Shown piece by piece: positions 1 to 22,900 of a DNA stretch of 64,000 nucleotides. How positions within the stretch are numbered: position 1 is the stretch's first letter; each line of letters starts with the position of its first letter. The position numbers and the translations under genes were made by a program. Origin of the DNA: Stylophora pistillata (lineage: Eukaryota); the NCBI RefSeq assembly GCF_002571385.2, contig NW_019217852.1:698960-762959 (forward strand). The letters are read 5' to 3'. The notes under the pieces are model-generated. The model ran no database searches. It saw only the letters and a program-made list of their open reading frames with translations, and was not told where the DNA came from.

Positions 1-60
1 AGGAAGAAAGACTCACTTAAGAAAAAACATTAAGGGACTTACTTTGATTTCTTTTAGTTT

Positions 61-303
61 CTATGTTTTTCTTTTTTTTTTTCCTGGGGTAGGGGTTTCT
101 TTGCGAGATGGAGAGAGGTCGGAGGATTTTCGTTTCAGGTCGTGTGTAGTTTCCATGTCGTTTTCATGGGTGTCTAAAGAAGAGATGGGTGTTGAGGTTG
201 GAACAGGTATGAGAGGGAGGTTTTCCGGTGACAAGAGTTGGAGTAGTTGGTTTTCTGGAACAGGCGAGAGATGGTTCGGCGAGACGGGCAGCTGTTTCTT
301 CAA
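61..303 (-). mobile_element. Possible C-terminal fragment of an L1/Tx1-type ORF1
   Basis: Pro/Ser-rich low-complexity ORF ending in basic TPTPGKKKRKT*. It is followed by AAGTCCCTT, a motif also found beside the Tx1 RT fragment (~6135-6143). No diagnostic domain is visible. Confidence 0.3.
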
Positions 304-578
304 AAGCGTGTGTTCCCTTTACTGCGAAGGATCGTGCACATATACGTTTCATAACCGAAGTTCATATATATGTATTTCATATATATTTGATGTTTGTTTA
401 CTTTGCATGGTTTGAGCGAGAGGTTCTTTGCTGTAAATTACGTAATCTTATTGGAAACTAGCATAAACTAGGCTTAGTTGGGAGAGTTGATGATAGCTTC
501 TGAACATATGGTTAATGAAGGGAAGCTACGCGGGACATATACGTATACTTTAAGCTAAATAATTTTTGACAGACTTAC

Positions 579-830
579 TCTCGACAATAAGATTGATATC
601 TTTCTTCTTAGACAGACCGTTGCCGTCCACTTCATAGCTGTAGTTGGTATTTATTTCTTCTTCAGTGATGTTGAGTCGATATCTTACACAAGTGCTGTTT
701 TGCACAACAGCGTCATTTTTTCTCCATACAATACGTAGAGCCGGTCCACCTTCTGCTGGGCACCACAGCGATGAAGAATGGTTGACCAAGACGAACTGAA
801 TTTGTGCTGCGTCATTTAGGTTTGCAAGAA
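579..830 (-). CDS. Isolated immunoglobulin-like domain exon; the rest of the gene is not resolved in this window
   Basis: 252-bp symmetric phase-1 exon (AG at 831-832, GTAAGT at 578-573) encoding SSSLWCPAEGGPALRIVWRKND...NYSYEV, with the B-strand Cys and C-strand Trp of an Ig fold. Confidence 0.65.
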
Positions 831-1625
831 CTAGCGACATCAAAAAAGCCATGAGGAAAAAGGGTTTTTTTAATCTTCCCACGAGCTTTGGACGAATAAA
901 AATCTCTGAGTTCCCAGGAGGAATCGAATCTCAGACATTCGGATTAAATAAAGTTTCGGCTATTACTTATTTCAGAAAAATTACATGGAGAACGCATAGT
1001 GCTTCAATTTTGTTCAAAAATAACTTATCGATGCGATAGTATTAACAATTCTCTTTGCCATGTTGATGAACAATAGGAACAATTGCCTTACTCAAAACAA
1101 GCGCTAGAATCCACATTCTCTTGATAGACATCTTCCCTAACAAAATGAAAAAAATTGATGTAAATTACATGCATGTATCCTGAACCCTTCACAGACCCAG
1201 TTTGAAAACATCGATGAAAGTGTGCTTAAAAATCAAAACAATTTTTTTCCTTTAAAATGGAGCAACTCGTAAAGTAGACGACATATGTATATTTCGTATC
1301 TCTCTTTCTTTTTGTTTTCTTTGCTTTTTATTTCGCTAATTTTATCTACACATTTTTCACGCAGTCACTAATACGACCGTCACAGATGTTACAAGCCGGC
1401 AAGGATTATTCGTAAGTTATAAACGTAAAGGCCAATTTCATTTTTAAGAAATTTTGAATAATTTAAATTCTCTGAGCTATTGGTACTCGAAATTGTTGCT
1501 TCTACCGTTATTCTTGTACGTATATGCGCCTCATCAAATACTCTGATGTTGTCAATTTTTTGGATTGTTTCTGCTCAAATAAATGTTAAATGCACCACAG
1601 TTTTAGTTTGAATATATCAACAAAG

Positions 1626-1991
1626 TTGAAATGGTAAATTGGTCACCGTTACGATTATAAAAGCTGACGTTTCGAGCGTTAGTCCTTCGTCAGAGCGAAT
1701 AGAGGAATTGTGGGTTGTGTGTGCTTTTAAAGGCAGAAAAAGGAGCTACGTGATTGGTGGGAATATGGCAACGAGAAAAACACGAATGAAAAGCGTTCGT
1801 TGATACCTATTGGATTTAGACTGCCGGTTTGAAAGATGAGCTTTTGTTCAAGAGTTTTCCGGCTTTCCGTGCTACCAAAGTGTAAGGAAAGACCGCAGAT
1901 TGCCATGTGTCGCTTAGAATGATTAGGTAAATTAAAATGTCTAGCGACTGGTTTCGATATGTCCTTGTCATTCCTCTCCACGTCGCGAAGG
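1626..1991 (-). mobile_element. Penelope-like element 3' fragment (GIY-YIG endonuclease C-terminus plus terminal repeat)
   Basis: Translation RDVERNDKDISKPVARHFNLPNHSKRHMAICGLSLH...RKTLEQKLIFQTGSLNPIGINERF matches the PLE GIY-YIG tail pattern (PVAxHF...ExxxI...TLxPxGxN). A hammerhead motif lies downstream. Confidence 0.85.
1663..1696 (-). ncRNA. Minimal type I hammerhead ribozyme motif of the Penelope element
   Basis: Minus strand reads GCT-CTGACGA-AGGACTAACGCTC-GAAA-CGTC-AGC: CUGANGA and GAAA core, 3-bp stem I (GCT/AGC) and GUC cleavage triplet. Stem II has one mismatch. Confidence 0.7.
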
Positions 1992-4900
1992 TAAAACTTT
2001 TAGGCCTGATAAAAATATGGGAAGAACCGATGTCAAACGTATTAAGTTCACTCGAACCTATCAAAACTTGTAGTATTTACACACGATTTTTAAAATGTTA
2101 ACATTATTGTCTGGTTCTCTCTGTACGAATAACTTTACTAACTCGTCTTGGTGACACCTGATACATACGTTAAATAAACTAACAGAGCACGTATAACAAC
2201 AGGGTGGCTTACCTGAAGGGGAAATATCTCACGAGTTAATCCAAGCACGTGCTGTTCCAGTGGCTTTTAATACCACGCGGAAAATTTACATTCAGATACC
2301 TCAGAACGCATGATAATTCTGACAGATGTCACAAGCTGTCACTTTCATGTTATAAACAAGAAGCTTCCAGTTGAAGTTGGAAACATAAGTGTGAAAAGAA
2401 GTTGTTTTCGAAAATTGTGCTCTTTTCTAGGAATTAACATTTAGGGTCATTGACATGCGAAAATTGATGTAGCCAAATGCCTGTTTTAGGATCCCATAAA
2501 ATATTTTAACATCAAGATGGTGATTATCAGTTGCTATATGTGTAAATCTTTATTGTCTGCTTTCGGCTCTTTGTACTTTTTGCTTATTTTTTCTTAACTT
2601 AAATTGAATAGAAACTGGAATTAAAACATGAATACGGAGAATTTTTTTAAATCAAGTTGAACAGGAGCCGAACAACTTCCTAAGATGATAAAGTCGGTAC
2701 TGCTCAGCTCTCGAAATGCAAAGCTGAATTTGATGTTCAAAGTGACGGAAGATAACTTCGAACCATTGTATTTTGAGATAGCCTTTAAGCATTGGTGGTT
2801 ATTGCGCCACAAGGAACAAATCTAGGACCAAAAATTGGGTCATTGTTGCAAGCGTGCTCTAAACTGCTCTAAACTAGGAGTCATTTTATTCCATTTTTGA
2901 TAGGGATGGAAATTGTATGTTGAGTTTTCAATGTGAGAATCCCGTTTTGCACTATACCAGGCGCCGTCTTCAAGGGACTTAAGTTAAAAAAAAAAAAAAA
3001 ANNNNNNNNNNNNNNNNNNNNNNNNNNNNNNNNNNNNNNNNNNNNNNNNNNNNNNNNNNNNNNNNNNNNNNNNNNNNNNNNNNNNNNNNNNNNNNNNNNN
3101 NNNNNNNNNNNNNNNNNNNNNNNNNNNNNNNNNNNNNNNNNNNNNNNNNNNNNNNNNNNNNNNNNNNNNNNNNNNNNNNNNNNNNNNNNNNNNNNNNNNN
3201 NNNNNNNNNNNNNNNNNNNNNNNNNNNNNNNNNNNNNNNNNNNNNNNNNNNNNNNNNNNNNNNNNNNNNNNNNNNNNNNNNNNNNNNNNNNNNNNNNNNN
3301 NNNNNNNNNNNNNNNNNNNNNNNNNNNNNNNNNNNNNNNNNNAAAAAACAAAAAAAAAAAAACAAACGAACAAAACGAAAAGGAAAGAGGCAGATGTTAG
3401 CATGCTTGTATGACTTGATCTGATAAAAAGAACAGAGATATCAGCATAATACCGCATGTCAAAAAATTACTGAAAGTAGTTTGATATAAATATTAATTCT
3501 TCAGCATGGCATCTTGACATCTACGCAAAATACGCCACTGTTGACATGTATCCCAATAATTTTGAGTCATGTTTATAGGAAGTATTGAGAAATTGCACAG
3601 TTGATGATCTAGAAAGACAAAACGGATTTTAAATTATGCCATTTTCTGAATTTTAAAATAAAGATGGCAAACAGGGGGTATCTAATCTATGATTTTGGCG
3701 GGCGCCTATCGCGGGTTGCGTGTAAATTGTTGCGTATATATTTTCGCAGGAAAATTGTGGCAGGTAAATCTTCGAACAATTGCCATACTTTTCATCTTAT
3801 TTCTATTGTATCCATCATTATATTTTTCATTTTTTGATAATTTTTTATCATCATTACTATTGTAGTTGTCAGTATTATTATAGTTATCATTATTACAATT
3901 ATTATCATGGTAATTTTTGGCATATAGGGTCCCAATTAAAACAACGGATGCAGGAGCCCATTATGGACTCCTGACGTATGTTTTACGGGAATCTTGTTTA
4001 AATATCGTTGTTATTATTATTTTCAGTGGTAAAACCAGGTGGAGCCAGGTATGGGGGGAATAATGCTCAAATCGCAAATTCGGTTCAAACTTGACATAAA
4101 TAAGAGGTATGATGAGTAAACAACTGTAGGAAGGTAACAGGTCATAATTGGCTGCTCTTGGAAAAAAGTGGGCCTTTAAATACCCCTTTTTCAATATTTG
4201 GAAAACTAAGAAAACTTGTCTTTACTCAAGCAAGAAATTAGGGAAGAAATGAAATTGATTATGCGAACAGAGTGGAGAAATGGATGTTCTGCCAACCTAT
4301 ATCTCTCATTCATTGAAGTGTCATTTTCACACTTTCTTTAAACTCATAATAACCTGCATTTGGGCCAAGTTTGAGCTAACCAGAGATTTGAGCATTGTCA
4401 GCAGTACCCGGTTTTCTCGTGGACACTCTCTTAATATTTCAAGTTCTAAATATTTGTAAAACTTTAATGATAATCTGATCATCTGAGTCAAACGATGTGA
4501 ACAGTTGGCATGACTGTATTGTCATCTACGATGCAATTTTGAACAATAAATGTTTTGGATAGGGAAAAAAATGGTCTCTAAAATTGCAATAGAACTTAAA
4601 AAATAAATCAAAAGGAAAGTACATATTCCACAATAGTGCCTACCAAAAGTCCTCATGGATGCAACTCATGTAATCGGAGAAATGATGGTGTGAAATTTTT
4701 GCAAATTAACATATGTTATATTTTTAAGTTTTAAAATGGGTTTATTCATAATAAACCACCTAAGTTACAAAATAAAAGTGCTAAAGCATGTGGGCTTGGC
4801 CCCAACTAATTATTAATAAACAGTCCAAAGTTCCAAAGCTCAAGAGTTCTTAAATATATACGAGTATCAAATATTACTAATATTAATGTAAGGTTATAAA

Positions 4901-6151
4901 TAATTCCAAAATAGTCAGGTCTAATATCAATATAAGCTTAATCTATAATATTGGTACGGCTAGGGCTAATATAGACTAATATTAATGTAACGCTAGGATT
5001 CTTTAATGCTAATTCTAAGTTGTAAATAATTCCAAGTTAATCTAACCTAATGTTAACTAGATTGCCATGTGTCGCTTAGAATGATTAGGTAAATTAAAAT
5101 GTCTAGCGACTGGTTTCGATATGTCCTTGTCATTCCTCTCCACGTCGCGAAGGTAAAACTTTTAGGCCTGATAAAAATATGGGAAGAACCGATGTCAAAC
5201 GTATTAAGTTCACTCGAACCTATCAAAACTTGTAGTATTTACACACGATTTTTAAAATGTTAACATTATTGTCTGGTTCTCTCTGTACGAATAACTTTAC
5301 TAACTCGTCTTGGTGACACCTGATACATACGTTAAATAAACTAACAGAGCACGTATAACAACAGGGTGGCTTACCTGAAGGGGAAATATCTCACGAGTTA
5401 ATCCAAGCACGTGCTGTTCCAGTGGCTTTTAATACCACGCGGAAAATTTACATTCAGATACCTCAGAACGCATGATAATTCTGACAGATGTCACAAGCTG
5501 TCACTTTCATGTTATAAACAAGAAGCTTCCAGTTGAAGTTGGAAACATAAGTGTGAAAAGAAGTTGTTTTCGAAAATTGTGCTCTTTTCTAGGAATTAAC
5601 ATTTAGGGTCATTGACATGCGAAAATTGATGTAGCCAAATGCCTGTTTTAGGATCCCATAAAATATTTTAACATCAAGATGGTGATTATCAGTTGCTATA
5701 TGTGTAAATCTTTATTGTCTGCTTTCGGCTCTTTGTACTTTTTGCTTATTTTTTCTTAACTTAAATTGAATAGAAACTGGAATTAAAACATGAATACGGA
5801 GAATTTTTTTAAATCAAGTTGAACAGGAGCCGAACAACTTCCTAAGATGATAAAGTCGGTACTGCTCAGCTCTCGAAATGCAAAGCTGAATTTGATGTTC
5901 AAAGTGACGGAAGATAACTTCGAACCATTGTATTTTGAGATAGCCTTTAAGCATTGGTGGTTATTGCGCCACAAGGAACAAATCTAGGACCAAAAATTGG
6001 GTCATTGTTGCAAGCGTGCTCTAAACTGCTCTAAACTAGGAGTCATTTTATTCCATTTTTGATAGGGATGGAAATTGTATGTTGAGTTTTCAATGTGAGA
6101 ATCCCGTTTTGCACTATACCAGGCGCCGTCTTCAAGGGACTTAAGTTAAAA
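1897..6151. repeat. Apparently identical 1.09-kb direct duplication (1897-2989 and 5059-6151), probably an assembly artefact
   Basis: Constant offset of 3162 bp, identical ORFs at 2621-2812 and 5783-5974, and both copies end at an A-run abutting an N gap. Confidence 0.85.
3002..3342. other. Assembly gap (N run)
   Basis: Run of Ns flanked by A-tracts; a further single N at 6152. Confidence 1.
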
Positions 6152-6152
6152 N

Positions 6153-6657
6153 ATTCGACAGCCCCAGACAAATGGCCAGATTAAAGCGTTAACCTTAGAA
6201 ATGACCCATTTCGGGACACACAAAATTGTAGAGAGATATAGGAGCTTGCTAATTCCGAGGGTGTTAACGATGAGCGATCGGCCGACAAGAGGAAGAGAGC
6301 GGGATTTCCATAAATTTAGATGTTTTTCTAATTTCTCTAGTTTTGGCTGCCAGTTGTCTAACCCAGTATCGCGGCCGAAAACAACACCTAGAATTTTAAG
6401 TTTTGTCATCCATTTGAGGACAAGTGGTTGGTCGTCGCGCGAACGCCACGCCCCCAACCACCTCCCCCCTGTTTTCGTGAGATTAAGGCGTGCCCCAGAG
6501 CCACGCTGGTAAATATTAATCATATTGAATAGAACTTGCAGAGAGCGATAAGATTTCACTATACAGGTCGTATCGTCAGCATAATTTCCAACTTTATGGC
6601 AGAGACCATGTGCGCTCGGAAGGAGAAAACCTTCGATCTCAGGATTATTTCGTATTT
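6153..6657 (-). mobile_element. L1/Tx1-clade non-LTR retrotransposon reverse transcriptase fragment, 5'-truncated
   Basis: KIRNNPEIEGF...YADDTT...SGARLNLTKT...LKILGV...WKSRSLPLVGRSLIVNTL: the RT YADD motif and the downstream thumb region typical of L1/Tx1. Confidence 0.92.
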
Positions 6658-6865
6658 TGGGCCTCATCAGTGCAGTGCTGATACTAGGATGGGGTAGAAC
6701 CGATATAGTTACCCCGAACGATCCCACATTTGTGGTATTGTCTAAGCCATGCCAGAGTGCTCAAACTAGGAAAGCTTAGTGAGCTATGCGCAATGCTGGC
6801 GGCAATGACTCACCCCACAGTGCTCAATTCGGACATGAAAGCAGAGGTTTGTATGCCAAAGAGTT
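6658..6865 (-). mobile_element. Retrozyme-like monomer with a truncated hammerhead ribozyme
   Basis: ~205-nt structured unit (hairpin GGGGTA...TACCCC at 6691-6715) ending in GCACTGCA-CTGATGA-GGCCCA, the 5' half of a hammerhead core, next to a (TA)n tract. The resemblance to coral non-LTR retrozyme repeats is from recall, not a search. Confidence 0.6.
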
Positions 6866-8498
6866 ATATCTATATATATATAATTTAGCAGTAACATAAT
6901 AATCTCACACCTCCCAGCAATTAAAAAAAATATGGCCAATTTTATTCGAATCTTGATTTGAATTTTCTTTTCTGCAGTATATGCTGACCAAATTGAAAAA
7001 TTGGAAGATTACAAATTACCGGGGTATGCTGTATTGTTCAAATTAAGTGGTCTCGTTTTCATTTGTTACCGTACTTTATTCTGACTTCTTTTTGGTATTG
7101 AGCTTGGCTTTGGAAGATAGCTGCACCGTGGAGAAATATCGATGATATTCTAGCGTACTTCAAGATGTTTAATACTCCTGGATTTTCAAGAATGAAACCT
7201 TACTGCATTTAAACCGTAATTGCAAAATTTAACTTGTCCCTCTCTTCTCGTCATCCAATGATGCATGACGCAGCGAGAAATTAATATCAATTAATAATTG
7301 ATAATAAATTAATAATATTATTATTGTTCTGCACTTCTGCTACACTGTAGAGTCTAAATGGAACCTAGCTTTAAGAAAAAGATCATTCACTTTGAAATGG
7401 ATATTAAAAAAAAGAAACGGCACTGTTCAAAATTTTTAGGAGACGGAACTTGCGGTGCTATTCAGTTTCGTCTTTTAAAAAGGCATTTATAGACCAAAAC
7501 ATTTCTTTCAGTTGATTGGTTCTGAGATATTCAGGTTTTCTTATTTTCTTGTTTTGGAGGCTCTCTGTCGTCAATAAACCCACAAATGATTCAACAAGAG
7601 AGGTATATCCTGCAGGGAATCTGAAATTGTATATCCTTTGAAATTGTTATGCCCCGTGGTCCCTGCTAAGACTGTTTTTGTTTGCTCGTCCGCTAAATTT
7701 CCTTTCAAAGGCTCCGTAAAAATAATTACAGTTACTGTAACGCCGGCTGTTTTCGTAGTGTTCGACTTTCCCTGAATTCCCAACCAGACGATTTCCACGG
7801 TGATACAGGCCTAGAACTTTAAAACAGCATCAACAATTTTTCATGCCGGTGTACGTCATATATGAAGCACTTTAGAAGTGACAAGCTAGATCGAAAAGGT
7901 ACGTCCACTTTTCAATGTTTGCCATAAATGTAACTTTATCTTGAAATTTCAGTCGTTGATAATTGCTGATTACGTTGTCAAACTGCTTAAAACAAATCTT
8001 ATTAGGCGTGACTAGTGTTTTTTATCCTTTTAAGAGAGATTTCGATTTCGAAAAGGGCAAGAGAATATAAACAATTATAATCTCTTGGGAAAGGGTTAAC
8101 CTTTTGAGGCATTTTAGGGAATATAAAAATGGCGTATAAACACCAGACTTAAAAGACATACTGTGCAACCTTTCGAAGAGTATCTATCTTAGAGTATTGA
8201 TCTTGGCAGTGAATATTAATCATCAAATTAAAAACAGCCTACTCTCTCAACGAAGAAAAGAGATATTCTTCAATTCAAAATCAAACCTGTGTTTTTTAAG
8301 GTGGAGGAGGAAAGGGGTAGATTAGAAAATATTTTTCGATATGATAAATGATTAATGATTATGTTCTAGTTACTTTTAAGAAACAGTATCTCAGTTTGTT
8401 TCATCAAGAAGAATTTGGCATTTATGCCAGCAAAGCGCTTTCTAGGTTCTTCAAAAATTAAGTAGTTAGGAACGATTAAACGTATTGATTTTGTTTAG

Positions 8499-11400
8499 AA
8501 TCCAGACGAACTCTTGAAGAAATAAACGCAGTGCACGTGAATGGACAAAATGACGATTTTGTTATCATGGAAAATTATTATTATGCAGGTCAGTAAACAG
8601 CGAGGGAAAATGTAAAGCCCTAAAGTTATTTTTCTTTCTTCCCCTCTTCAAAGTTCCGTGTCATCCAAACATTACTCTTTTCGCATATCTCTAAACACAA
8701 CAATGATTAAAATGTAATTATCAAAAGCCAGGTGGATCCTATTTACATATCATATGATAAAAATTAATGATTCGCTCTTATTTTTTTTTTAAATCTCAGC
8801 GGGGTTCCTTTTGCAAATTATTTTTTATAGGGAGCGATAAAGTTACTCTTTACTTAACACACAAAAAGGTGCATTAATTTTTTATCTATAGCAGACAATC
8901 GTCAGAAAATCGATAAAGTTTAAACATTTTGAGTGGGTGACTTTCGTTCTCATCCTTTCACTTAACCACACTGATCATCGTCAATTTGTAGCTTCGCTGC
9001 ATCTTGATATCCAAGCTATTTCTAAGAGCAGGATTCATGCAATGCCTTTTCTATTGCGCAAAGTAAACAAAAGAGTGGATATCCATTAATGTTAGTTTTT
9101 CTCAGCATCAGTCGGTTACGATACCACATTTCGTCTGAAAGTAAACACATCATGGGAATGCGAAGAAATGTTGTATTTAACAAAAGATTTGTTTTTTTTT
9201 GTTTTTTTGTTTTTTCGAAAATTGATTTTACTCCGCTTCTATTTCGACCTATAAAGAGAGGGTTTTTTTTATATTTATTGAAAGGTTGCAGGTTTGCTTA
9301 CAGCCACAAAGGCATGGTACTCTGGATCTGATCACAATTGGCCACTGAATGAAATAAGATACAACCAAGTGTATGATTACAGGCAATTTAACCACGGATG
9401 GTGGAACGGGTATATCAAAGGTAACGAATAACTAATTAATGCCCTCTAAATCATTGATACCTCTTCCAACTAAAGCGCGGAAAATGAGTTAGTCTTGAGA
9501 TTTTTAATTTCGAAAAGTATTCGACACGAAAAAGAGGTTCCAGTCATCTAGCTCTGATCATTGGAGGTGTCCTCATATTTCTTGTATACCGGCTTCATCG
9601 TCTTCTGATTACCACAGGTAATGCAGAGATTACGTGGTCTCCACCTCAAATCGGCCTAAATGTCTATGGTCAAGATACATGGATTGACTTTGGTGTTAGA
9701 TACAACTCTTGCTATGTGGACGTAAAATACTGCAACCAAACTGGTTTTAGCGTTACATTTTGGATAGCTTTCCAAGAGGCTTCAACTACACAGGGGTTAA
9801 TTGAGTTTGGAAATGGTGATTGCGGGCTCAGCATCACCCGAACAACTGAAAATGAGATTAATGCAACAATTAAAAGCATGGAATTGAATAGTACCTGGAG
9901 TTTGCATAGTGTAAATGCAAGTGTTCGTCATGGAATATGGCATCATCTGGCGCTAACCTGGAACGCTTCTGGTGAAGTCTATCTCTTTATCAATGGCACA
10001 AGGTACGTGGGGAGGGGTACGTGAGTCTCATTTTTTTTCTATTAAAATCACAGACAGCGTTAACTGTGTCCTTCTCTGATCTTACAAGAAAATGTGCCCC
10101 ATCCGATCATAAGCCTTCTCGAATGTAAGTGCAAAAAATATTAAAAATATTCCTAAAGGAAGGAGAGCTAGTGATGGTATTCATTTAAAGGCACAGCAAC
10201 TGATATTCAAACTCCTAAGTAACGTGCGCGCACGGATTAATGTCGATCGCGTAATTTTATCCGACAACATAGGCTTTGCTAAAAAATACTATTTTCAAAT
10301 GCTATTTGGCTACAGTAGTCGACTCGCCACTGAAGTGCTGTGCTGGAAGTTATTTCCTTTTTTTCAATGTATGAAAAAAAAAAAAAAAACCTAGCTTTAC
10401 CTAGCTCTCTGTCTTTTTTTTGATAGATTGAACAATGTTATCCAGCGCACAACTCCCAACGTCTCCTGTTCTGACACAAATTGCAAGTGTGATTGGTCAA
10501 TGAAAGTCGGCACCGTGACTTTCTGCAACTCATCTGCCCGAACGTATCCATCCTTGTTGCTTGCCAGGCTGGTTTTATGGAATTACTCGATCAATGATGA
10601 AACAGTTCTTGGTTTATCGCAAGATGTACAAGGTAAGAAATCTTGACTTATCGGAAACAAAACGTTTGAGAATTCGGCTCTTTGACATAACTGGTATTTA
10701 ACTCCAAAGTATTTGTTGCAAGATATATACAACAGATCGTAGAGGCGCGGTGACCTCATGGTTGGTGCGCTTGACTCCGGATCGAGTGGTCGGGGTTCGA
10801 GCCCCGGCCGGGACATTGTCTTATGTGCTTAGGCAAGACACTTTACTATCACAGTGCCTCTCTTCATCCAGATGTTTAAATGGGTACTGGCAATTTAATG
10901 CTGGGGGTAACCCTACGATGGACTGGCATCAATCAATCAATTAATCAATCAATCAATACTTTATTTACCCACGTAGCGTCAAGGAGCTCATAGAGCTCGT
11001 TCAAAATACGCACGTGCCAAATACGTACAAATCCCATCCAGGGGGGGTGTAGAAATACTCCTGGTCGCTTCATGGTACAGAAACCGGAGTTAAGCACCGG
11101 CCTAATGGGCCACTAGGCTCGTATATAGACTTTACCTTATATACAACAGATCAATGCCAAATTGGGTCAAAGCTTTTTCAATAAATAAGACGTTATGCCA
11201 CGTAAGAATAGAAAATAAATCACAAGCAAATCCAATAAGTATGTAAATGATCAATGTGATATCATTTTGGTATCTCAGATACAATGAATATATGAAGTTC
11301 ACATAGTTTGAACTGCGGTATTAGATACGCATAATGCACGATCCTCGCAGTACAGGCCTGATTTTTTTCAGGTCTGATTTTCGCTATTGCATAAATAGCG

Positions 11401-13500
11401 CTCTCTACTGCGAGGATCGTGCATCATACGCATTTTGGTATTGTAGTTGCGTATCTTTATAAAATTAAAGATTATCTTGAAATAAACAGAAACCTATGCT
11501 GCATATTTCTTTTAATAAAAAATGTCTCGGATATTCGAGAAAGGTCTTGAAATTTTCTTTTAGGGGTATTTCTCTCGAACAGAGGGTGCTACGGTGGGTG
11601 GATAGCTAACTTACAATTTTGCTACTTCATCGCATCTAACTGGAAAAAGACATGGCATGAGGCGAGGGAAATTTGTGTTAAACGCCGAGGAAATCTAGTC
11701 AGCATTGGAAGCTTAGAGGAAGACGATTTCTTGGAAGAAGTGCTAAAGAAGACTAAAGAAGTATCAAGTTGTATATATATTGGATTGCAGACTGGTCATG
11801 TTAACTTAACACCGTCTTGGGAAGATAAAAATGTTTGGAAGTTCTCAAAACTCAGCACTAGATACGACCAAGAAAACAGCACTGATTTGTGTGCATACCG
11901 ATACTCGGATGGTTTGTGGTATCTGTCTAACTGTAGCGAGAAATGTGGCTTCATGTGCAAGAAATATAGAGGTGAGTCTTAAGAAACAAAATTACATAAA
12001 AAAAAAACTGCCCTTATATCATTACTTTTCTTGCCTACAACCAGCCAATCAATGGCTGGTTATGGTAAACTCGCGTCGTGTTTGATGGGTTCTTTTTCTG
12101 GGCGAGACATGTGTTCAGATTCACAACCTTTTGCTGGGCTTCAAGGAAATGTTTTACAGATAAGGCGCGGAAGCTATGGAAGGGAAGTAATAGTGGCTTG
12201 CTTCCTGGTTTTCCGGAGCTCCATGACATCCACGTTCCTATATCGAAAAATCAGCTTTAGGGCTATTAGCCTCACGTATGTTCAGTTTCTGATGCATGAG
12301 AAATAAGCCGTTGAAGAGGTCCTCTGTTTGAATCTAGAAGCCCATCTTCCTCTTCCTCCTTACTCTCAATATCATTTTTCGTTCACCGTAATTTTAGCGT
12401 GCATTTTTTTTTTCCTGTCTCGTAACTTTCCAAAAAGTTGAGTCTCATCAGTAGAAAGTTTACAGAAATTTATCTTGTCTTGACCCTTTAACTTCTAAAA
12501 ATGATTAACATGAACCCTCTCCTTATAATATTCATCTAGTATCCAGCAAACGGGTCATGAAAGTACTCAAACTTATCAGGTAAAAGTTGTCTAATACCAA
12601 ATTCTCATAACTAGGGAAATATGTAGCAGCTGGTAGGGAGAACCAACAATCAGTTCTTGGGAATAGTCCTTTTTACAGTTGTGGGCTTGGTGGCCAAGCC
12701 TTTGAACAGGAGTGAGGCTAAGGGTGAGCCTGTTGTGATAGAGACCTGTATCTAGTTAGCATGATAACAAAGTAATTTGCATTTGAAAAGCAGCAACATC
12801 TGTATCGTAACAAGGTCACCCTTAGCCTCACTCCTGTTCAAAGGCTTGGCCACCAAGCCCACAACTGTAAAAGGGACTATTAAAGATTTATTAGAATATC
12901 CGACACGAATCGAGTTTTGAAAAAAAAAAAAAAAACAAAGTAATCAAACGGCAAATCAGAACTGAGCCAGTTAATAAAAGAAGTTAACGAGTCGAGAGAT
13001 TAACATGCTAGACATGGTACGCTTAATCTTTGTCAAACACCCGAAAACCACAATAACCAGGTCGCGTTTGGTATCATTTTTGTTTTTAACTGAGCTCGGA
13101 ATGTGCCAACAGCGAAAAAAAGAAACTCAAATAGAGCCCTGAGTAAATTTTGCTCTTAATTGAAAAATTTCTCTTCATTGAACTGAATTTTTCATCCCTA
13201 ATTTGATGTTTTTTTTTTGTAGGTGGCTTATTTAAAAACGCCGAATTCCACTGTCGAGAGAGGAGATACAACCGCCAACTTGTAGGACACCGATTGTCGA
13301 TACGATGGGTGCAGAATGAGCTGAATTGTGCAATCGACTGCTTGCTTTATGGCGCAACATGTGCATCATACAACTATAAACAGAGCGACTCGTCATCAAA
13401 GAAGCAAAACATCTGCGAGCTTAACAACGAAAATCAGCATAAAAACCCCACGAGTTTGATTTACAGTAGTGGCTTTCAGTATTGCGAAAGGGTGTCATAA
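8499..13500 (+). CDS. Spliced mosaic protein: LamG/pentraxin-like (ConA-like) domain, C-type lectin-like domain, PAN/Apple domain
   Basis: Phase-consistent exons 8499-8588, 9292(or 9304)-9420, 9618-10002, 10427-10632, 11564-11971, 13223-13500(TAA); possible upstream exon ending at 7898. Motifs: HNWPLNE, GFSVTFW, WHHLALTW...LFING (LamG); CYGGW...CYF...TWHEAREIC...LVSI...YIGL...W...C...GFMCK (CTLD); CAIDCL...CASYNY...ICELN (PAN). AATAAA at 13721. Confidence 0.85.
10739..11137 (+). mobile_element. Full-length tRNA-derived SINE with a 15-bp target-site duplication
   Basis: A-box-like GGTGACCTCATGGTTGG, B-box GGTTCGAGCCC, central GGCAAGACACTTTAC...CAGTGCCTCTCT domain and ACTTTACCT tail. TSD TATATACAACAGATC at 10724-10738 and 11138-11152. 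Confidence 0.9.
10931..11031 (-). mobile_element. Short 3' end of a LINE (CR1/L2-like) nested in the SINE
   Basis: The minus strand has a stem-loop (GAGCTC TAT GAGCTC), AATAAA and a (GATT)n tail. It interrupts the SINE sequence GACTGGCATC|CCATCCA. Confidence 0.65.
11283..11435. repeat. Foldback interspersed repeat; related copies at ~320-385, 23315-23600 and ~28350-28470
   Basis: Inverted repeat TGCACGATCCTCGCAGTA (11335-11352) / TACTGCGAGGATCGTGCA (11406-11423). Shares ACCGCAGT and AGGCCTGAAAAAA-type motifs with the other copies. Confidence 0.7.
12480..12661. repeat. Interspersed repeat of the ACCCTTTAAC/AAATTCTC family; related copies at ~45760-45965, ~54070-54268 and ~55250-55445
   Basis: Shared blocks such as TACCAAATTCTC, GGAGAATATGCAT and AGGGTGTCAAGGG between copies. 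Confidence 0.55.
12662..12881. mobile_element. MITE with ~65-bp near-perfect terminal inverted repeats, nested in another repeat
   Basis: AATAGTCCTTTTTACAGTTGTGGGCTTGGTGGCCAAGCCTTTGAACAGGAGTGAGGCTAAGGGTGA at the left end and its reverse complement ending ...GGGACTATT at the right. Confidence 0.9.
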
Positions 13501-14501
13501 GATCGCCTCAGATCGTGCTGTTTCGATTCCAAAAGATGTTTTCTTTTCTGGACACATTTATCATAAATACACTTTCACTGCTTTCCTGGCTGATGAACTG
13601 CTCCTTGCAGTTTCATATATTTTGGCTTGCTGGTTTATTATTTGTTCTATTTCCTTAGGGACATTCCTCATTATTGCACTGCGCATCTTGTAATGCGGAT
13701 GTAAGTCACGTAATCAGGCGAATAAACGCGTGTGCATTCCGAGAACACGGTATCGTTTTTCAGTCAACACACTTTAGTTCTTTAACGAGCACGGGAACCT
13801 TTATTTTTTGTTGCATAATTATTGTGTTCAAATTATCCCCTTTGAATTGAAGGAATAAGAAAATATCGAAGGCAGAAAAAAAGATATCGCTAGAGGCGTG
13901 CACGTGCACGAAGCCCGTTAATCGAGGATGCAAATTATGACCTTGAAAGCAAGGACTCTGGGAACGTTTGAGTCGATGTCGTTTAGAACTGCGTGATATT
14001 TCCACGAATTATATGCAAATTATTCCATACGCTCGAGACTTTTTGCCTTCCAATTTTTTTTCAAATGTTACTCTACAAACCCCTGCCTCCAGTCACCGCA
14101 AAATGTACCGTGAACTGATGAAATCGCGCGCGTGATTGGTGCCGGTACTTACTGATGGGGTAAGTTTGACCCACAACATCTTTTAAACAAGCACGTCACG
14201 ATGACCTATCTTTTTTATTGTATTTTTCCAAATGAAAAAAATTGTCCGATAACTTTCTTTTTTGAGGAATCACGTTGACAGAATGATCTGCAGTGACGAG
14301 AAATCAGAATTGTAGGTGCGCTCCACCCTTAACAGAAGAAGTCTTTTTCTTTCACATCCTTATCCTTAAAAAAAATCCACGCTAGGCTACGATACACTTG
14401 TCTTTCAAGTGAGCCGAGTAGCTCAGGCAGCCAGACTATTCCAGGTTTTATAGAAAACGTAGTTCCCTTTCCCACTGGATGGGATGTTAGTCCAAAGCAA
14501 T

Positions 14502-16525
14502 CTCCCACACGAAACCTCTCCCCCTCCCCCAAGAGGGGGAAAGGCCGTTCATCCTCCCGGGTATGAGGTTAGTTTTCTTAGCAACACATCACATGACCCT
14601 AATTAGGACATTTCGATGCGAACTCTTGCGGGGGCTTCCGTTAGGCTATTGCGTCGCCTTGAACACGTTGTGTACAACCTTACTTTTGGTATTAAAAGAC
14701 CACTGTAGACGATTTAGGAAACTCCACTTTAAAATATATTTTGGGTTGCTTACGTTGTGTTGTCTGAAATGAGCTGCTATACTAAGTCAGCATTTTTCTC
14801 AACTTATATAACTTATAGTTCGTAACGATATATCTTTTTTTAAACTTCTCAAACTTTTAAAATGTTTGGTTAGAAAAATAACTACAAAAGTCTTCTTCAG
14901 TAAATTAACAACTCAACATACTATTGTAAAATAAAAATACTTATTTTCTTTAAATATATGTTTGTTTGATAAATTATGAAATAATTGCATTCATTTGATG
15001 GTAATTTTGTATCAGTGATAACCGTCCTCAAAATGAGAACGCACCTGGTTATGAGTAACTTACTCCGTTATAATATAATGCACGTTTCAAAAGAAACTAG
15101 TACAAGCCTTGACCGCTAATTTTGATTCTGACCGCTGAAAGCAAACAAGAGGAGGTTGCTGTCGGTCACGACTGGTCTGTGCACGTGCACAAAAAAATAG
15201 ACAAGCCATTGAGAAATTTACAGTGCTTTTAAATAACGTGCGAACTATAAAAAAGGAACATTTAGTGCCGTCAATCCATCGTCAAATCTCCCGAGAAACC
15301 AGTTAATTGTCAAAAATATTTGGAAAACGACTGTATTGTGATTAGAGGATCTCAATCCATTTGGTTTGTTTCTGAGTTTGAAGTCCGTTAAGATCAACAT
15401 CATACAATTTTGTATCTTTTCTCTGTGAAATGACCTTTTTAACAGGGGTGTATGCTGAGTATTCGTTGCAGAATCGCTTTGGTTCTCTTATCTCTCCCTT
15501 TGGCTTGTTCGCCATTTTGAAAATTTGCTCAGGAGGGCATCTCGGTTAGCGGCCGCGCCAGGCTGGAACCGACAAGAACAAATGTCCATCGCAGTGGGGA
15601 AACAGTTTGATATGCTCCCACACTAAACCTCTCCCCCTCCCCCAAGAGGGAGAAAGACTGTTCATCCTCCTGGGTAAGAGGTTAGTTTTCTTAGCAACAC
15701 ATCACATGACCCTAATTAGGACATTTCGATGCGGACTCTTGCGGGGGCTTCCGTTAGGCTATTGCGTCACCTTGAACACGTTGTGTACAACCTTACTTTT
15801 GGAATTAAGAAACCACTGTAGACGATTAAGGAAACTCCACTTTAAAATATATTTTGGGTTGCTTACGTTGTGTTGTCTGAAATGAGCTGCTATACTAAGT
15901 CAGCGTTTTCTCAATTTATATAACTTATAGTTCGTAACGATATATCTTTTTTTAAACTTCTCAAACTTTTAAAATGTTTTCTTAGAAAAATAACTGCAAA
16001 AGTCTTCTTCAGTAAATTAACAACCCAACATACTATTGTAAAATAAAAATACTTAGTTTCTTTAAATATATGTTTGTTTGATAAATTATGAAATAATTGC
16101 ATTCATTTGATGGTAATTTTGTATCAGTGATGACCGTCCTCAAAATGAGAACGCACCTGGTTATGAGTAACTTACTCCGTTATAATATAATGCACGTTTC
16201 AAAAGAAACTAGTACAAGCCTTGACCGCTAATTTTGATTCTGACTGCTAATTTTGATTCTGACCGCTGAAAGCAAACAGGAGGAGGTTGCTGTCGGTCAC
16301 GACTGGTCTGTGCACGTGCACAAAAAAATAGACAAGCCATTGAGAAATTTACAGTGATTTTAAATAACGTGCGACCTATCCAAAAGTAACATTTAGTGCC
16401 GTCAATCCAGAGTCAAATCTCCCGCGAAACCAGTTAATTGTCAAAAATCTTTGGAAAACGACTGTATTGTGATTAGAGGATTTCAATCCATTTGGTTTGT
16501 TTCTGAGTTTGAAGTCCGTTAAGAT
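14502..16525. repeat. Diverged ~0.9-kb direct duplication (14502-15394 and 15615-16525)
   Basis: Colinear copies with scattered substitutions and a 19-bp tandem expansion in copy 2 (~16226-16263), separated by a 220-bp spacer. Confidence 0.9.
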
Positions 16526-16971
16526 GTGTAAAGTTAGCATGAAACAAAATCTCAGGCTTGACTCTGAGTCTCCGACAAAGTTTACACGTAATTGGAGGGC
16601 GAACTTTAAAGACTACTATATAATTAAAGGTTAATATCGTATCAACAGTTTTTCAGGGATACCACAAGAGTTTGAATGAAGTTTTGGTAAGCCTTGCGAC
16701 TTTGCCCATTTCCCGCCAAACAAAAACATGTTTGTAATAAGAATGGATCCTACCTTTTCTCTAGCAAGGTAATAGGAATAGAGTTCATTCAAATAACAGA
16801 TGACGATTGCCAGTACAAGATCTATTCAAGGGTTTATCGTAATCCTTTTGTTTCATTAAATAGCCGTAACGTCCCAATGTTCATAACCGCTCCATACGCA
16901 TACAGTATATACGCTTAAGTAAAGCACGACCCAGCTTTTTGTATGTGAAGCAATTCGCTAACGGTCTTCGC

Positions 16972-19900
16972 TTATCTCCCTTTCTTGAACAATCCACACA
17001 ACTGGCAAGTGATGTGTGCATCCTCACTATAGTCAACACACACCTCATCGACGGTATCTTTACCAACAGAACCAACTCCGTTGAATGAGGAATTGTCGCC
17101 ATTAGCAGAGGTAGTTGAGTCTGCATCGCTCTTCTCTCTTCGAGATGAAACAAACTGGAATTTCTCGTCGAACGACATGTTATCGTAGCCTGAGAGCCTA
17201 TTTGCGATTTCAGTGATCTCCAGCTCCTGTTCAGTGGGTTGTTTCTTCGGAATGTCCATAGGGATTGATGCTAATAATTCACAAAGGTCCAGTTCGCTGG
17301 AATCCAAGTCAACTGTACGCCATTCTTCCTTTCTGGCATTCGGCTCTTCGTTATCTTGACCGATCAACAAGTGAGGCTTCTCTCGTCTTCTCTTCCCGGA
17401 AGAATTTCCTTCTGATTCATTGTCTACGTTTTCAAAAGTCACGTGTTTTTGGGACTTTCTCTTCTTTCCAGATGAACTTAGTTTGAGATCATCTATTTCC
17501 TCCTTGGACGAGTAACTGTTTGTAACGTCCCTAAATATAAGAAAGGAACTATGCAATACCGAACAGTCGACCCCACAAAAATCAAACCTTCAAGGGCAAT
17601 TGGAAAGCGCTCGAAGTACAGGAGGTTCGAAGTACAGGAGGTGAAATCTATAACACAAATGGAGTTAACTTGGGATAGCGTGCTGTTAGAGTTATTAAGG
17701 ATTCGTGTTATCGGTAGTCGATTGCTCTGCCGCCCAGAGCTTTAAAGGCAGGGTTTTATAAAGCACACCTTGAATGAAATAAAGACAAAAGACAAAACTC
17801 TACCAACATGTACACTGTACCAAATCAGTTGAGCAGTTGATCAGTTGAGTTTAGTGAGGTCCAAAGTATGCTTAATTAAAATAATGATGATGTCTTTTAG
17901 AACAGTCCCGCGTAACAACTATTTGTCCATGTATCTCGGAAGCTTACGTAAGTTATTATGGAAAGGGAAAACTCAGAATATTCAAGGCTATTGTGCCATT
18001 CGCTAACGATGACTGACACTAAATCGCAAGACACAACTTAAGCTCTTTTTTTTTATCAGAGAAAAGCTGCTGCATCGTGGGCTTCTCAAGCATTGAAGAC
18101 AAAAAAAAAAAAAATTAAAAGTACTTACATTTCGTCCACTAATGGTCTGGAGCTGATACATCTCTCAATTAATATTTTCCTTACATCCAGCTCGTCCTCC
18201 ACATCAGTAATCTTTCCTTTGATGCTGTCCAGTTCTTTTTCTAGTTTCTGTCTGTACTCCATGAACTCAAATATCTCTCCCTCAAGCCGAGAAGTATCCT
18301 GCATCTGAGATAAGAGTTTGCCTTTTAGCTGTTCTCTATTATCGTCTAGTTCAGTTGGCACTTTCAAAGCACAATGGTGACAGACAGAAAGGCCATTTTC
18401 ACACTCTTCCAGCTCATTTTGAAGGTCTGACCTTTCAGTTAACAGGTGTGCTATCTCGTCTTCCTTTGAAACAAGCTCACATGATAGCCGAGAGAGCTTG
18501 CACTCCAAATTGTCATACAAGAGACAAATGTCGTCATCATCGGCACCGATTCGACCTTCGTTGTTTAAATTTCTTTCTCGTACTAGTTCCTCCTTTAATC
18601 GTGACAGTAAACTAGACAACTTAACACGTTCTGCCCGACTAAGTCGCGGAAGCGTTGTATCATTGTTGGAATTTTCTGTGGAAGGATCACCAGCCAGTTG
18701 ACTTCTTACTTCGTGACTGCGCTCGATCTCCAGTTTTCCATCAGTGGTAAAGTTCGAAAGCTCGTACTTTCTGCCTAGCGAGTCCCTTATAGCGTGGACT
18801 TTCGCTTTCAACTCCTCGTGTGAGCGTAAGATTTCAGTTTTGTTCTCTCTCATTATGCTAACATCTGAGGGATTTAGAAAGCCTTCCTTATCCGGAAGAA
18901 GACGAAAAGTGAAGAGAGACTTCAATGAAAACAACTCATTGATATCGCTTCCAATTTCGCTACTCGATTCTTCCGTTCGGGTTGAAGTGTCATTCGAATC
19001 AATCGATGTTGGCCTTAGTCTATAGCGCTGAACAGTCTCCTCATCCAATCCAAGAAAACCAATTATCTTATCAACAGGAATGTTCAAATCTCTCTGCAAG
19101 GTCAACATACCATTTATGAGGCCGAGAACTTCCTGCTTAAGGTGATCAACCGTACGACTCGCCTCGATGATCCTTTTCTCTAGGGAAATTTTCTTTTCCC
19201 TGAGCTCCGTAAAATCTAATATTCCATGACCCACCTCGTTGCGCATGAATGCTGATTCTCTCTCCAAGTCAGTTAATCTCTTCTCTAAGGCGGCCTCGTT
19301 TTGTTTATGAGCGGCTATCTCCGACCGCATTTCCTTGGCCTTCTCGCTGCAAAATGCGGCATAGGTCCTTAAGGTAGTCGCCTCGGCTGATTTCAGGTTC
19401 ATTTCATGCAACAGGCATTCGTTATCTGAACGACACACTCGAAACGTTTTCTCAACAATGGACAAGTTGGCTTCAAGAGTTTTTATTTCTTGGATGAGTC
19501 TTTCATTCTCTTTCGCCATCTTTGAGTTTTCATGTTGAAGGTCATCAATTGTGGTTTGCAAATCGGTTTGCTCTCTTAAAAGAGTGTCTGTTTTCATATG
19601 TGTTGTTTCAATAATCTCGGGATGCTCCTCTCCAATTACTAAGGTCGAGGCTGTGGTATCGCTTTTAGAGTCTATTTCTGTAGGAGTTTCGTTTTCGTTT
19701 CTTGATCCCGTTTCACTTGCCCGAAGTCTCTCCACCTCTTGCTGAAATACCGACAGTTTTGCGAGTAATTTTTCTTCCGATTCGACGTATCTCCGGAGGC
19801 TCCGTTCCTGTTGAGCTTTGTCTCTCTCACTGTCGTCAAGTTCAGTTCGCAACTTGCACACCTCGCTTGACAGATCCACAGATTCATTTCGCAACTTCAA

Positions 19901-22900
19901 AATTTCATGGTCCCTTTCAAGTAAGTCCCTTTCCAGTTTTAAAGTGTTTTCTCTAAAAGATTTTAGTTCTAATGAAAGATTTGAATTCTCTTTTCGTAAC
20001 TTTTCCAGTCTGTCTGCAGTTCTTCCGGTTGAACTCCGTGCCATTTTTTCCTCTTTCCGAGAGAGCAATCTCTCTTGGAATTTACAATTTTCTACTTCGA
20101 GCGTTTGAGCTCTTTCACGCAGATCCAACTCGGTTTGTTTAGTTAAGAGTACTTCACGCTGTGAGAGGTGTAGTCGATCCTCCACATCCTTATTTCGAGC
20201 CTCGGCATTTTCCAACTTTTCTGTTAAAATTTTTATGTCGCCGCGCATGGCACTTCGAACATTCATGTCCATGTCTTTAACAGTCGAGTACTGCTGTTCT
20301 GCCTGTCGAAGTTTTGTCTCTAGCTCAAAGATTTTTTCGCCAAGTTCGCGACTACGCGTTTGAGCCTTTGTAAGCTTTTTTGTCATTTCTTTACAAAGTT
20401 CGGCGCGCAACCTTCGCTCATATTCCTTCACACTCAGAATTTTAACCTGCTGTTCTTTCACTTTAACCTCCAATTCAATTACTTTCTTTTCGAGGATTTT
20501 CTTCTGATCATTATCACTTTCATTCTCGTCGCTAGTCCGTGGACTTACGATGCCTCCAGATTCATTTAATCTGTCTTCCAGTTGAAAAACTCTTAGGCTG
20601 AGCGCTTTGTTCTCTGCAATCGAGTTTTCTAATTGCTTTGTTATTTTGTTACTCTCAAGTAGATCTGACCCCGTGAACGAAGCTAATTTTAGCTCGCACT
20701 GTTCACATTTATCCTCAAGTTGTTGTATTTTGAGTTGCAATTTTGCGCTTCGTTCCTCTGCATCGTCAGAACGTTTCCTTTCTTCAGAAAGCTGTACTCG
20801 AAGCTTCCTCTCTGTTTCTCTTAGAAATTCCATCTTTTGTTCTCTAAACTGAAGTTGATCCTCCAGCTCATCAACACGCACTAATAATTCGTTTGTTTCA
20901 AAATCCTTTTCTTCAATCTTGCTCCTTAAATCATTTTCCGCATTAGTTTCTGACTGCATCAAATGTTTTAGTTTCTTCTCACATCTTTGAAGCTTTTCCT
21001 CATAATCCAAAATCTTCAGAGTCAATTTACTTTTTTCCCCCTCGATCTGTTCATACCTTTTTCGTAACTCTTCGTTCTTTTCATACAAACGCCCGTTTTC
21101 GGCTTCGAGCTCCTCCATTGTGTTTTCCAAATGCACCGACAGTTTCTCGCGGCTGTTAGCGCTGTCACTCAAACTTTCAAGTACCACCCCTTCGTCGACG
21201 GATGTCAGTCGTCCTTCTCCGCTTTGCGTTCCTGACAAAGTTGGAGATGGAAGAAAGTCATCGCTAGACTGACTTGAACATTCGGCTGTCATGCCGCTGA
21301 TTCCTTAGGGATGAAATATAGCTCCGTCAAAGGAGAAGTATGCCTCAGAAATCACTGAGTTTTGTCTCTGCCCTTTTAATGTAGGTGTGAAACTTTTCTA
21401 TTTGCCATGTTTTAACGATTCCGAAGAGCCTCCTCGCCGTTTAGAAAATTTTCGGGAATCACAAAGCGCGGTTTACCGCAGATTCAGCTCTGGTTGTCGC
21501 CGACAAAAAAAAAAAAGGAAAAATCTCTTCTTGACTAAAGAATTTCTGTTCTTTTAGTTTTTCAAAAGAGTTTTTCAAAGAGTTCGGTAAGTGATCGAAA
21601 AACAAAAAGGAAAGAGGAAAAGTGAGTCTGTTCCGTCGAAGGCAAGTGGCCAGGCTCCCAATCAAGTTTTTAAACGATGACTTCTATGGCCGCACTTTTC
21701 GGAAGGAGACTATACTCTTTTAAATACAAAACCTGGTTAGTGTTAGAATTACAGGCATCCTTTTAAAGGCAGAGGCAAAAATCATATGGTTTTCGGATCA
21801 TACTTCTCTAAACGAACCTATGCTGCCCAACTTAAAAGAGAAGGCTCAGAGTACCAAAAAATGACTTTGGGAGTAAACTAAAACCAATGCAAAGAAATCC
21901 CAATGGAAAACCCAACAAGTGAAAAAGGTTTTAGTACATTGTAGTTGATGATGACTATGTGAGGCCAGTGGTTTCGGTTTCTTTGAATATTCGCTCCTCT
22001 TCTGGCGAAGAGGTAATATAATGCCGGAGAAACTTTCACATTCCTTTATTCATTTCTAAGGCAATGTAATACCTGAATAGTCAAACCGCGTTTGTTGTTG
22101 TGCTAAGCTTCTAATGCGGGACTCCATATCCGCCTTGTCCAACAGCAACAGACAGTTCAGAATGGCTTTGTCCATAAGCACATGACACAAGGACTGTTCG
22201 AGCTTCAATGGATCGACGGGAGTTCCATCGCCATCTTTACAGAGGAAAAAATTAGTTAAACATCAATGTGATGGAGTTAACTTTGAGAATGAAATATGTC
22301 CATGCTCTGGTCATTTCCTCAAGACAATCGTTTCCAAAGTGACTTTATGAGGAATCTTCCCTCATCAAAAATAATCAAAATTTCCTGGATATGCTCTGAC
22401 GTGGTCTTAAGACAGAAGACATCAGCATTCGCCCCTATTTTTTAACAATAGCAAATACTAGGCCTGTCCCGATTGTGTTCGTAAAACGGGAAACTTTCTC
22501 TCTGGAATGCAAAAAAGTTGTTAAAAAATTGCCAAAATTCCAAAATTTGTTTCCTAAATTTCTTGATTTAATTATAATGTGAGCATTAATATAAAGGCCG
22601 TATTTTTTGTTCTTCACAATAATTTTCGACATCTGCAAAAAATTATAGCTCAAAACTTAGCTTTAAAAGTCACTCGCAAATATGGGCGAAACTTAAGTAT
22701 ACTCTGAAAAGTAAAGGAACGAAGATAGCCTTTTTTGGGCGTCATTTTAACCGATTATCCGCTCTAATATTAGATGAGGATCGCAATAGGTCTTCGAAAC
22801 GTTGTCAAATGACAGCAATTGGGACAAGCCTAGCCAACACTGAATTCAGGGAGGGGGGGAAGGTAGAGGTGGAAGAACTTGTGCAGGGTATATAAAAAAC

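Follow-up and report, generated by a model that had tools for sequence, protein, structure and literature searches.

A 5'-shortened Tx1 LINE in a hammerhead retrozyme of the coral Stylophora pistillata, with relatives recurring at hammerhead loop III

The Tx1 copy and the retrozyme monomer at the locus

The window, a 64,000-nt stretch of S. pistillata contig NW_019217852.1 (positions 698,960 to 762,959 of the forward strand), contains a shortened copy of a Tx1 LINE joined directly to a partial hammerhead retrozyme. The features are given below in window positions.

6872..6883, minus strand: (TA)n tract bordering the monomer upstream, recognised from the sequence
6658..6872, minus strand: monomer of the 245-nt retrozyme family, truncated at hammerhead position +19, up to 95% identical to other copies
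6730..6735, minus strand: PSE-like motif CCACAA; stem I starts 59 nt downstream of it
6658..6676, minus strand: 5' part of a type I hammerhead (stem I strand, CTGATGA, stem II 5' arm)
6658..6659, minus strand: CA microhomology at the retrozyme-Tx1 joint, where other Tx1 copies read GCATGCA followed by AAATCC
6153..6659, minus strand: ORF2 piece of Tx1 subfamily A, end of the RT domain, 93.9% identical to the nearest copy and in clade A of the RT tree
5059..6152, no strand: assembly artefact that replaces ~940 bp of the element with an exact second copy of 1897-2989 and an N
4721..5058, minus strand: Tx1 3' UTR with AATAAA and an A5 tail, then TATAACATATG; this 3' joint is bridged in three runs
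1..295, minus strand: second Tx1 copy, subfamily B, 5'-truncated (L105), with its 5' end in the window

As the initial annotation had described, the monomer read on the minus strand from 6872 to 6658 ends in GCACTGCA-CTGATGA-GGCCCA, and the RT frame KIRNNPEIEG follows directly and continues to the N at 6152. The stem II 3' arm, the paired GAAA and the GTC are indeed absent at this joint, and other copies have them. The CA at 6659-6658 is compatible with both partners, which leaves a 2-nt microhomology. The Tx1 copy is 5'-shortened, extends from 6659 to 4721 and is ~1.8 kb long. Its RT piece is 92-94% identical to the best other Tx1 copies in the genome, and the RVT_1 profile matched this fragment weakly (E 0.0048, below the cut-off). 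In the sister copies L061 and L067 the zf-CCHC, Exo_endo_phos and RVT_1 domains all scored over the cut-off, and the window copy has a polyA tail, as in the Tx1 clade.

The monomer was compared with the 398-Mb eukaryotic genome assembly, where 40 of 655 candidates were scored and gave 49 matches; the runs holding the window stretch include coral metagenomes. The retrozyme unit is 245 nt long, with a tandem spacing of 244-245 nt and arrays of up to 12 units. A 21-mer of the unit had 807 exact matches in the genome and the control had none, and 763 exact intact hammerhead cores were found. The complete core presupposed by the initial annotation is present in the family: stem I ACTGCA/TGCAGT (6 bp), CTGATGA, stem II GGCC/GGCC, GAAA, CAG/CTG and GTC. 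Stem III of this family (family 1) is palindromic around GT^AC. The complete type I core and the tandem units within 150-400 nt are two features of metazoan non-LTR retrozymes. In its ~245-nt tandem or solo units, type I hammerhead and lack of an ORF it resembles metazoan non-LTR retrozymes as described in the available parts of PMC7229834 and 10.64898/2026.07.22.740005, and it fits the coral retrozymes of the former. In Rfam, family 1 matched only HH9, at 22.9 bits and below the cut-off, and a second retrozyme family of 254 nt passed Hammerhead_1. The Rfam search of window positions 1-20000 gave no hammerhead, as expected, since only half a core is present there. The unit had also been called structured; its folding did not exceed that of shuffled sequences (z 0.35).

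The stretch 5059-6151 is a 100% duplicate of 1897-2989 (1093 bp). It adjoins two gaps, and the faulty regions are 5059-6152 and 3002-3342. Compared with L067, ~940 bp of ORF2 are missing where 1094 bp were filled in. The duplicate is a gap-fill artefact, and the element continues past the N. A 378-nt contig bridged the 3' joint of the window copy without difference in 3/3 DNA-type runs, and no empty allele was seen in three runs, all of which carried the 3' joint of the insertion. Of the pieces from four runs, 32 were listed and 1841 fell outside the listing; none of the 32 bridged the 5' joint (0/4 runs), and the joint sequence had no exact match in metagenome contigs. The private RT alleles of the window were absent from the contigs of four runs, to which we give no weight, as contigs drop rare variants. 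In one RNA run, 172 reads, mostly in one mate orientation, fell on the 3' UTR stretch. The Tx1 family is transcribed; these reads come from related copies and are not assignable to the window copy.

Junctions between Tx1 elements and hammerheads

The initial annotation tied this Tx1 family to retrozyme hammerheads and placed the insertion in stem-loop II. The tie held and the position did not: the recurrent family junction is loop III, at GAAACAGT^ACTGTC (the caret marks the junction), 15 nt beyond the window joint. Sixteen complete 5' ends (heads) of subfamilies A and B were chosen via the RT or the 3' tail, not via the retrozyme; the count excludes two heads of family C and one that adjoins a run of N. 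Thirteen of the 16 directly follow GAAACAGT or a variant of it, the 5' arm of stem III. One of the remaining heads stands in tandem behind another copy and two have other flanks. Counted from the hammerhead side, 51 hammerheads have a base other than A after GAAAC(A/G)GT, and they comprise 19 that run into a Tx1-type head, two other breaks and 30 point variants. The element body is present in 18 of the 19.

Stem-loop II was also considered as a target. A non-G base followed G(A/G)CCCA at 79 places, 41 of which were read, including all 16 of family 1; among those 16, only the window runs into Tx1. Stem-loop II was therefore rejected as the target, and the window joint is a one-off: a single one of the 16 deviating family 1 hammerheads carries Tx1.

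On the 3' side, polyA joined to a hammerhead 3' half was found in 27 rows representing 22 places, and 21 of the 22 are element tails of about six types. Seven type B tails join at (A)CTGTC, and 14 tails of five other types (two of these types without protein evidence) have their joint two bases before this, at GTACTGTC or at a variant that differs in one base. The second Tx1 copy of the window, L105, runs out of the window to G000:C69:695120, where its polyA joins CTGTCTGCAG, the hammerhead 3' half, exactly. In metagenome contig L307, a tail related to RT lineage E lies at the same loop III 3' site. Two B-type tails with different 3' UTRs (L118, L120) join the same unknown repeat at GACTGACTGCAGT, which is perhaps a third hammerhead-like target.

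Short copies retain both hammerhead halves. Their 3' joint is fixed and their 5' joints vary (query positions 233, 234, 238, 250 and 251), and in L339 a private variant of the target is duplicated. A fixed 3' joint with a variable 5' joint is the outcome of target-primed insertion into existing DNA. Short insertions with both halves, together with the duplication, therefore indicate insertion into retrozyme DNA that already existed. The window joint, at query position 223, lies 10 nt outside the range of the short-copy 5' joints; a metagenome relative (L263) has its 5' joint at stem II, query position 228.

The subfamilies A and B differ at their 3' ends. None of the 23 A tails is at loop III; 11 are at TA tracts, 11 elsewhere and one at U2 +38. 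Subfamily A, to which the window copy belongs, is precise only at its 5' end. Six of the seven retrozyme-headed A copies with a visible tail end in a TA tract, and such copies look as if the TA tail of the monomer had served as the priming site, with ~12 nt lost. Thirteen of 18 B tails join the hammerhead 3' half, five of the 13 having been chosen by the junction pattern; among the 13 B tails picked by RT or tail, the number is eight. Seven 5'-truncated B copies inspected (L083, L090, L094, L105, L114, L122 and L124) have no retrozyme at the 5' joint. These joints would need target deletions of >240 nt or later loss, and they count, as does the lack of A tails at loop III, against the explanation that we favour below.

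Likeness to the U2 site and a putative promoter

The retrozyme site resembles the site in U2 snRNA at +37/38, which we take to be the target of Keno. The U2 site reads GTGTAGT^ATCTGTTC (+37) and the retrozyme site AAACAGT^ACTGTCTG (+34), with AGT^A(T)CTGT common to both. Many element heads open with U2 5'-terminal sequence, and others carry diverged versions of it at their start. U2 stands on both sides of elements in this genome (L239 with L115, and L237), and two more tails, including L238, lie at or near U2 +38. We found one intact U2 copy, as against ~800 hammerheads. Three heads in loop III (L217, L230 and L235) are U1-derived or mixed U2/U1, and two of them lie in the hammerhead of the 254-nt family.

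The RT tree was built from 470 columns and 60 rows, with L103 (70 columns) dropped and named Keno sequences outside the tree. Support was 100 for A+C and 97 for A+C+B, and the group falls within a set of metagenome elements that have U2 flanks. In lineages E and D alike, loop III copies group with a U2 resident (support 100 and 97). Three RT lineages thus each hold loop III copies plus a resident of the Keno type at U2 +37/38. Two points count against the favoured explanation here: the U2-resident sister C covers only 133 of the 470 tree columns, and the nearest metagenome relatives, L247-L250 (66-72%), have neither a U2 nor a retrozyme flank.

Counted from where stem I begins, the motif CCAC(A/C)A is located at -59 in family 1 and at -55 in family 2. 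It is found at -59/-60 in six U2 upstream regions and at -56 in one U1 gene, the one scored of at least 10 U1 loci. A PSE stands ~55-65 nt before the transcription start, a distance that this spacing fits. This 6-nt motif and its U2-like spacing suggest a putative snRNA-type promoter in the retrozyme, for which no transcription start site was seen in the reads. An snRNA-type promoter has been reported for newt satellite 2 (PMC2220036, citing Coats 1994, in the part available), and our result points to a similar one in coral retrozymes. The elements likely borrow the predicted promoter of the retrozyme.

The segment from +1 to +34 occurs in different surroundings. L076 and L235 have a family-2 promoter with a family-1 hammerhead half, L230 has the reverse, and in L176 the segment stands behind unrelated DNA. 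AAT or ATT replaces AGT in 7/7 heads of one type versus 2/74 uninterrupted hammerheads. The variants of the upstream monomer differ among copies of one head type, which indicates that the targets were independent. The leader, +1 to +34, thus travels with the element.

Some further joints were recorded. An extra G precedes the U2 +1 base at the joint in L076, L142, L178 and L071; such a G is expected if the cap is copied, as with L1. A tail type at U1 +1 (L188, L189, L191-L193) is also located at base 1 of the retrozyme hammerhead (L178), a second target site in the repeat. A relative of the U1-type lineage in metagenome contig L310 has its joint with the same retrozyme family near position 29.

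Origin of the joint and related elements

We consider it probable (about 0.7) that the locus holds a 5'-shortened Tx1 LINE in a hammerhead retrozyme, whose relatives recur at loop III, likely because this loop resembles the Keno-type U2 site and adjoins a predicted snRNA-type promoter. A Keno-type endonuclease would nick loop III at AGT^A(T)CTGT, which resembles U2 +37. A copy resident at +34 would be transcribed from the retrozyme promoter, so that its RNA would begin with the hammerhead 5' half. On reinsertion the carried leader would anneal to the target and give a precise full-length 5' joint, and early stops would join by microhomology. Subfamily A would have relaxed its 3' choice to TA tracts and other sites. 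For the window copy, priming would most likely have occurred in the monomer's TA tail, followed by an early stop and joining by CA, with ~30 nt of target lost; a later deletion, or a jump of the RT onto its own leader, would give the same picture. The flagged joint is ordinary truncation debris, yet it points to a target class that is new for a known kind of site-specific LINE.

Subfamily A could also be read as a composite element whose 5' part is a whole monomer and whose insertion sites are TA-rich or random; the window copy would then be an internal deletion of it. The lack of A tails at loop III suits this reading, L067, L071 and L179 have private variants in common, and internal deletions beginning just inside the head are common (L068, L069). 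However, one head type stands behind differing monomer variants and even behind the second retrozyme family, and the upstream parts vary from a 7-monomer array to a partial unit. Since the same head follows different monomers and families, only +1 to +34 is carried, and we regard a composite as unlikely. It is very unlikely that the joint arose when the RT switched template, leaving Tx1 RNA for free retrozyme RNA as in the U6-L1 chimeras, with Tx1 mobilising retrozymes. In U6-L1 chimeras a single duplication encloses the whole unit, and the small RNA is joined at its 3' end or close to it. The two parts have the same orientation, a 2-nt microhomology and TA-rich outer ends, and coral retrozyme RNA is abundant according to the available part of PMC7229834, but the joint falls 21 nt short of the cleavage site and does not coincide with the end that cleavage gives a retrozyme RNA, and no duplication of the U6-L1 type flanks the composite. 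Among 68 uninterrupted hammerhead ends none carried polyA (45 TA tracts, 16 next monomers and seven others). The available parts of PMC7229834 and 10.64898/2026.07.22.740005 prefer Penelope-like elements as the mobiliser. The link from Tx1 to retrozyme mobility proposed in the initial annotation is not supported, given these polyA-free ends and the short copies inserted into existing retrozyme DNA.

An assembly misjoin, or a chance neighbour, is highly improbable as the origin of the joint. The assembly is faulty 506 bp from it, which counts against the favoured explanation, and the gap-fill artefact, the lack of a bridging piece among those listed and the zero metagenome matches all fit a misjoin. 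Nevertheless the length of the gap suits a colinear element with a real 3' joint, the flank and monomer at 6802-7011 were matched without difference in three runs, and at many other loci this family joins this repeat no more than 15 nt away. A misjoin at the window would leave the family-level result untouched.

Like Keno, which is U2-specific and is found in cnidarians (available parts of PMC4494074 and PMC4640811), these elements have an APE endonuclease, an RT, a polyA tail and U2-derived heads, and U2 +38 residents occur in this genome. The RTs of groups A, B and C fall among metagenome elements that are U2-flanked on both sides. Unlike Keno, most copies here are in the retrozyme hammerhead, and with U2 tails in 1/23 A and 0/18 B we class them as relatives of Keno and not as Keno itself. 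Crocodilian Tx1-Mar and Xenopus Tx1L are Tx1 families that insert into another transposon (PMC4494074, as far as available), and the Keno-related Tx1-Mar goes into other transposons with U1/U2 heads (PMC4494074 and PMC4640811, likewise). Our elements share with them the relation to Keno, a mobile-element target, U1/U2 heads in some families and the flank transcription proposed in that part of PMC4494074. The difference is that here the catalytic core of a ribozyme is targeted, with at least three lineages at one U2-like site.

In R2, a carried target leader makes the 5' joints precise, and truncated copies have variable 5' joints. The elements described here are alike in their precise joints, probably made by such a leader, in the variable joints of truncated copies and, likely, in cotranscription with the target. 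Cotranscription of R2 with 28S rDNA is cited in the available part of PMC4494074. R2 differs in clade and endonuclease, and in our case the insertion splits a ribozyme that is part of the target.

The available parts of PMC7229834 and 10.64898/2026.07.22.740005 describe no role of retrozymes as LINE targets, and in the latter 'Tx1', 'promoter' and 'snRNA' occur 0 times. Our literature search, with subscription papers, Repbase entries and supplements outside its scope, found neither Tx1 insertion in hammerhead repeats nor a PSE in retrozymes described; the supplements of PMC4494074 on Tx1 targets may affect novelty. These results bear on how site-specific LINEs change targets. With U2 and retrozyme residents in three lineages of one genome, at two sites that have a short sequence and a promoter distance in common, sequence mimicry and promoter capture become separately testable. 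A route is suggested by which U2-site elements outgrow a low-copy target, and retrozymes appear as hosts, not only as passengers.

A further idea is that the LINE in loop III forms the loop of a split hammerhead. Stems I and III keep both strands, and the halves would rejoin on the cotranscript and cut behind the polyA, so that the element would gain a promoter upstream and have its 3' end made by the ribozyme. The lineages would have converged on the only position that keeps both. We hold this to be unlikely. Folding does not weigh either way: the probability of stem III was 0.03 in the 151-nt split copy L342, and it was also just 0.0-0.02 in intact copies.

Elsewhere in the window, an open frame at 9488-10024 on the plus strand encodes a Laminin_G_3 domain (E 2.5e-11) and is probably a host exon. 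A direct duplication of ~1.1 kb with 96-98% identity lies at 14502-16525, and a tandem repeat with an 18-nt unit is located at 39187-39384.
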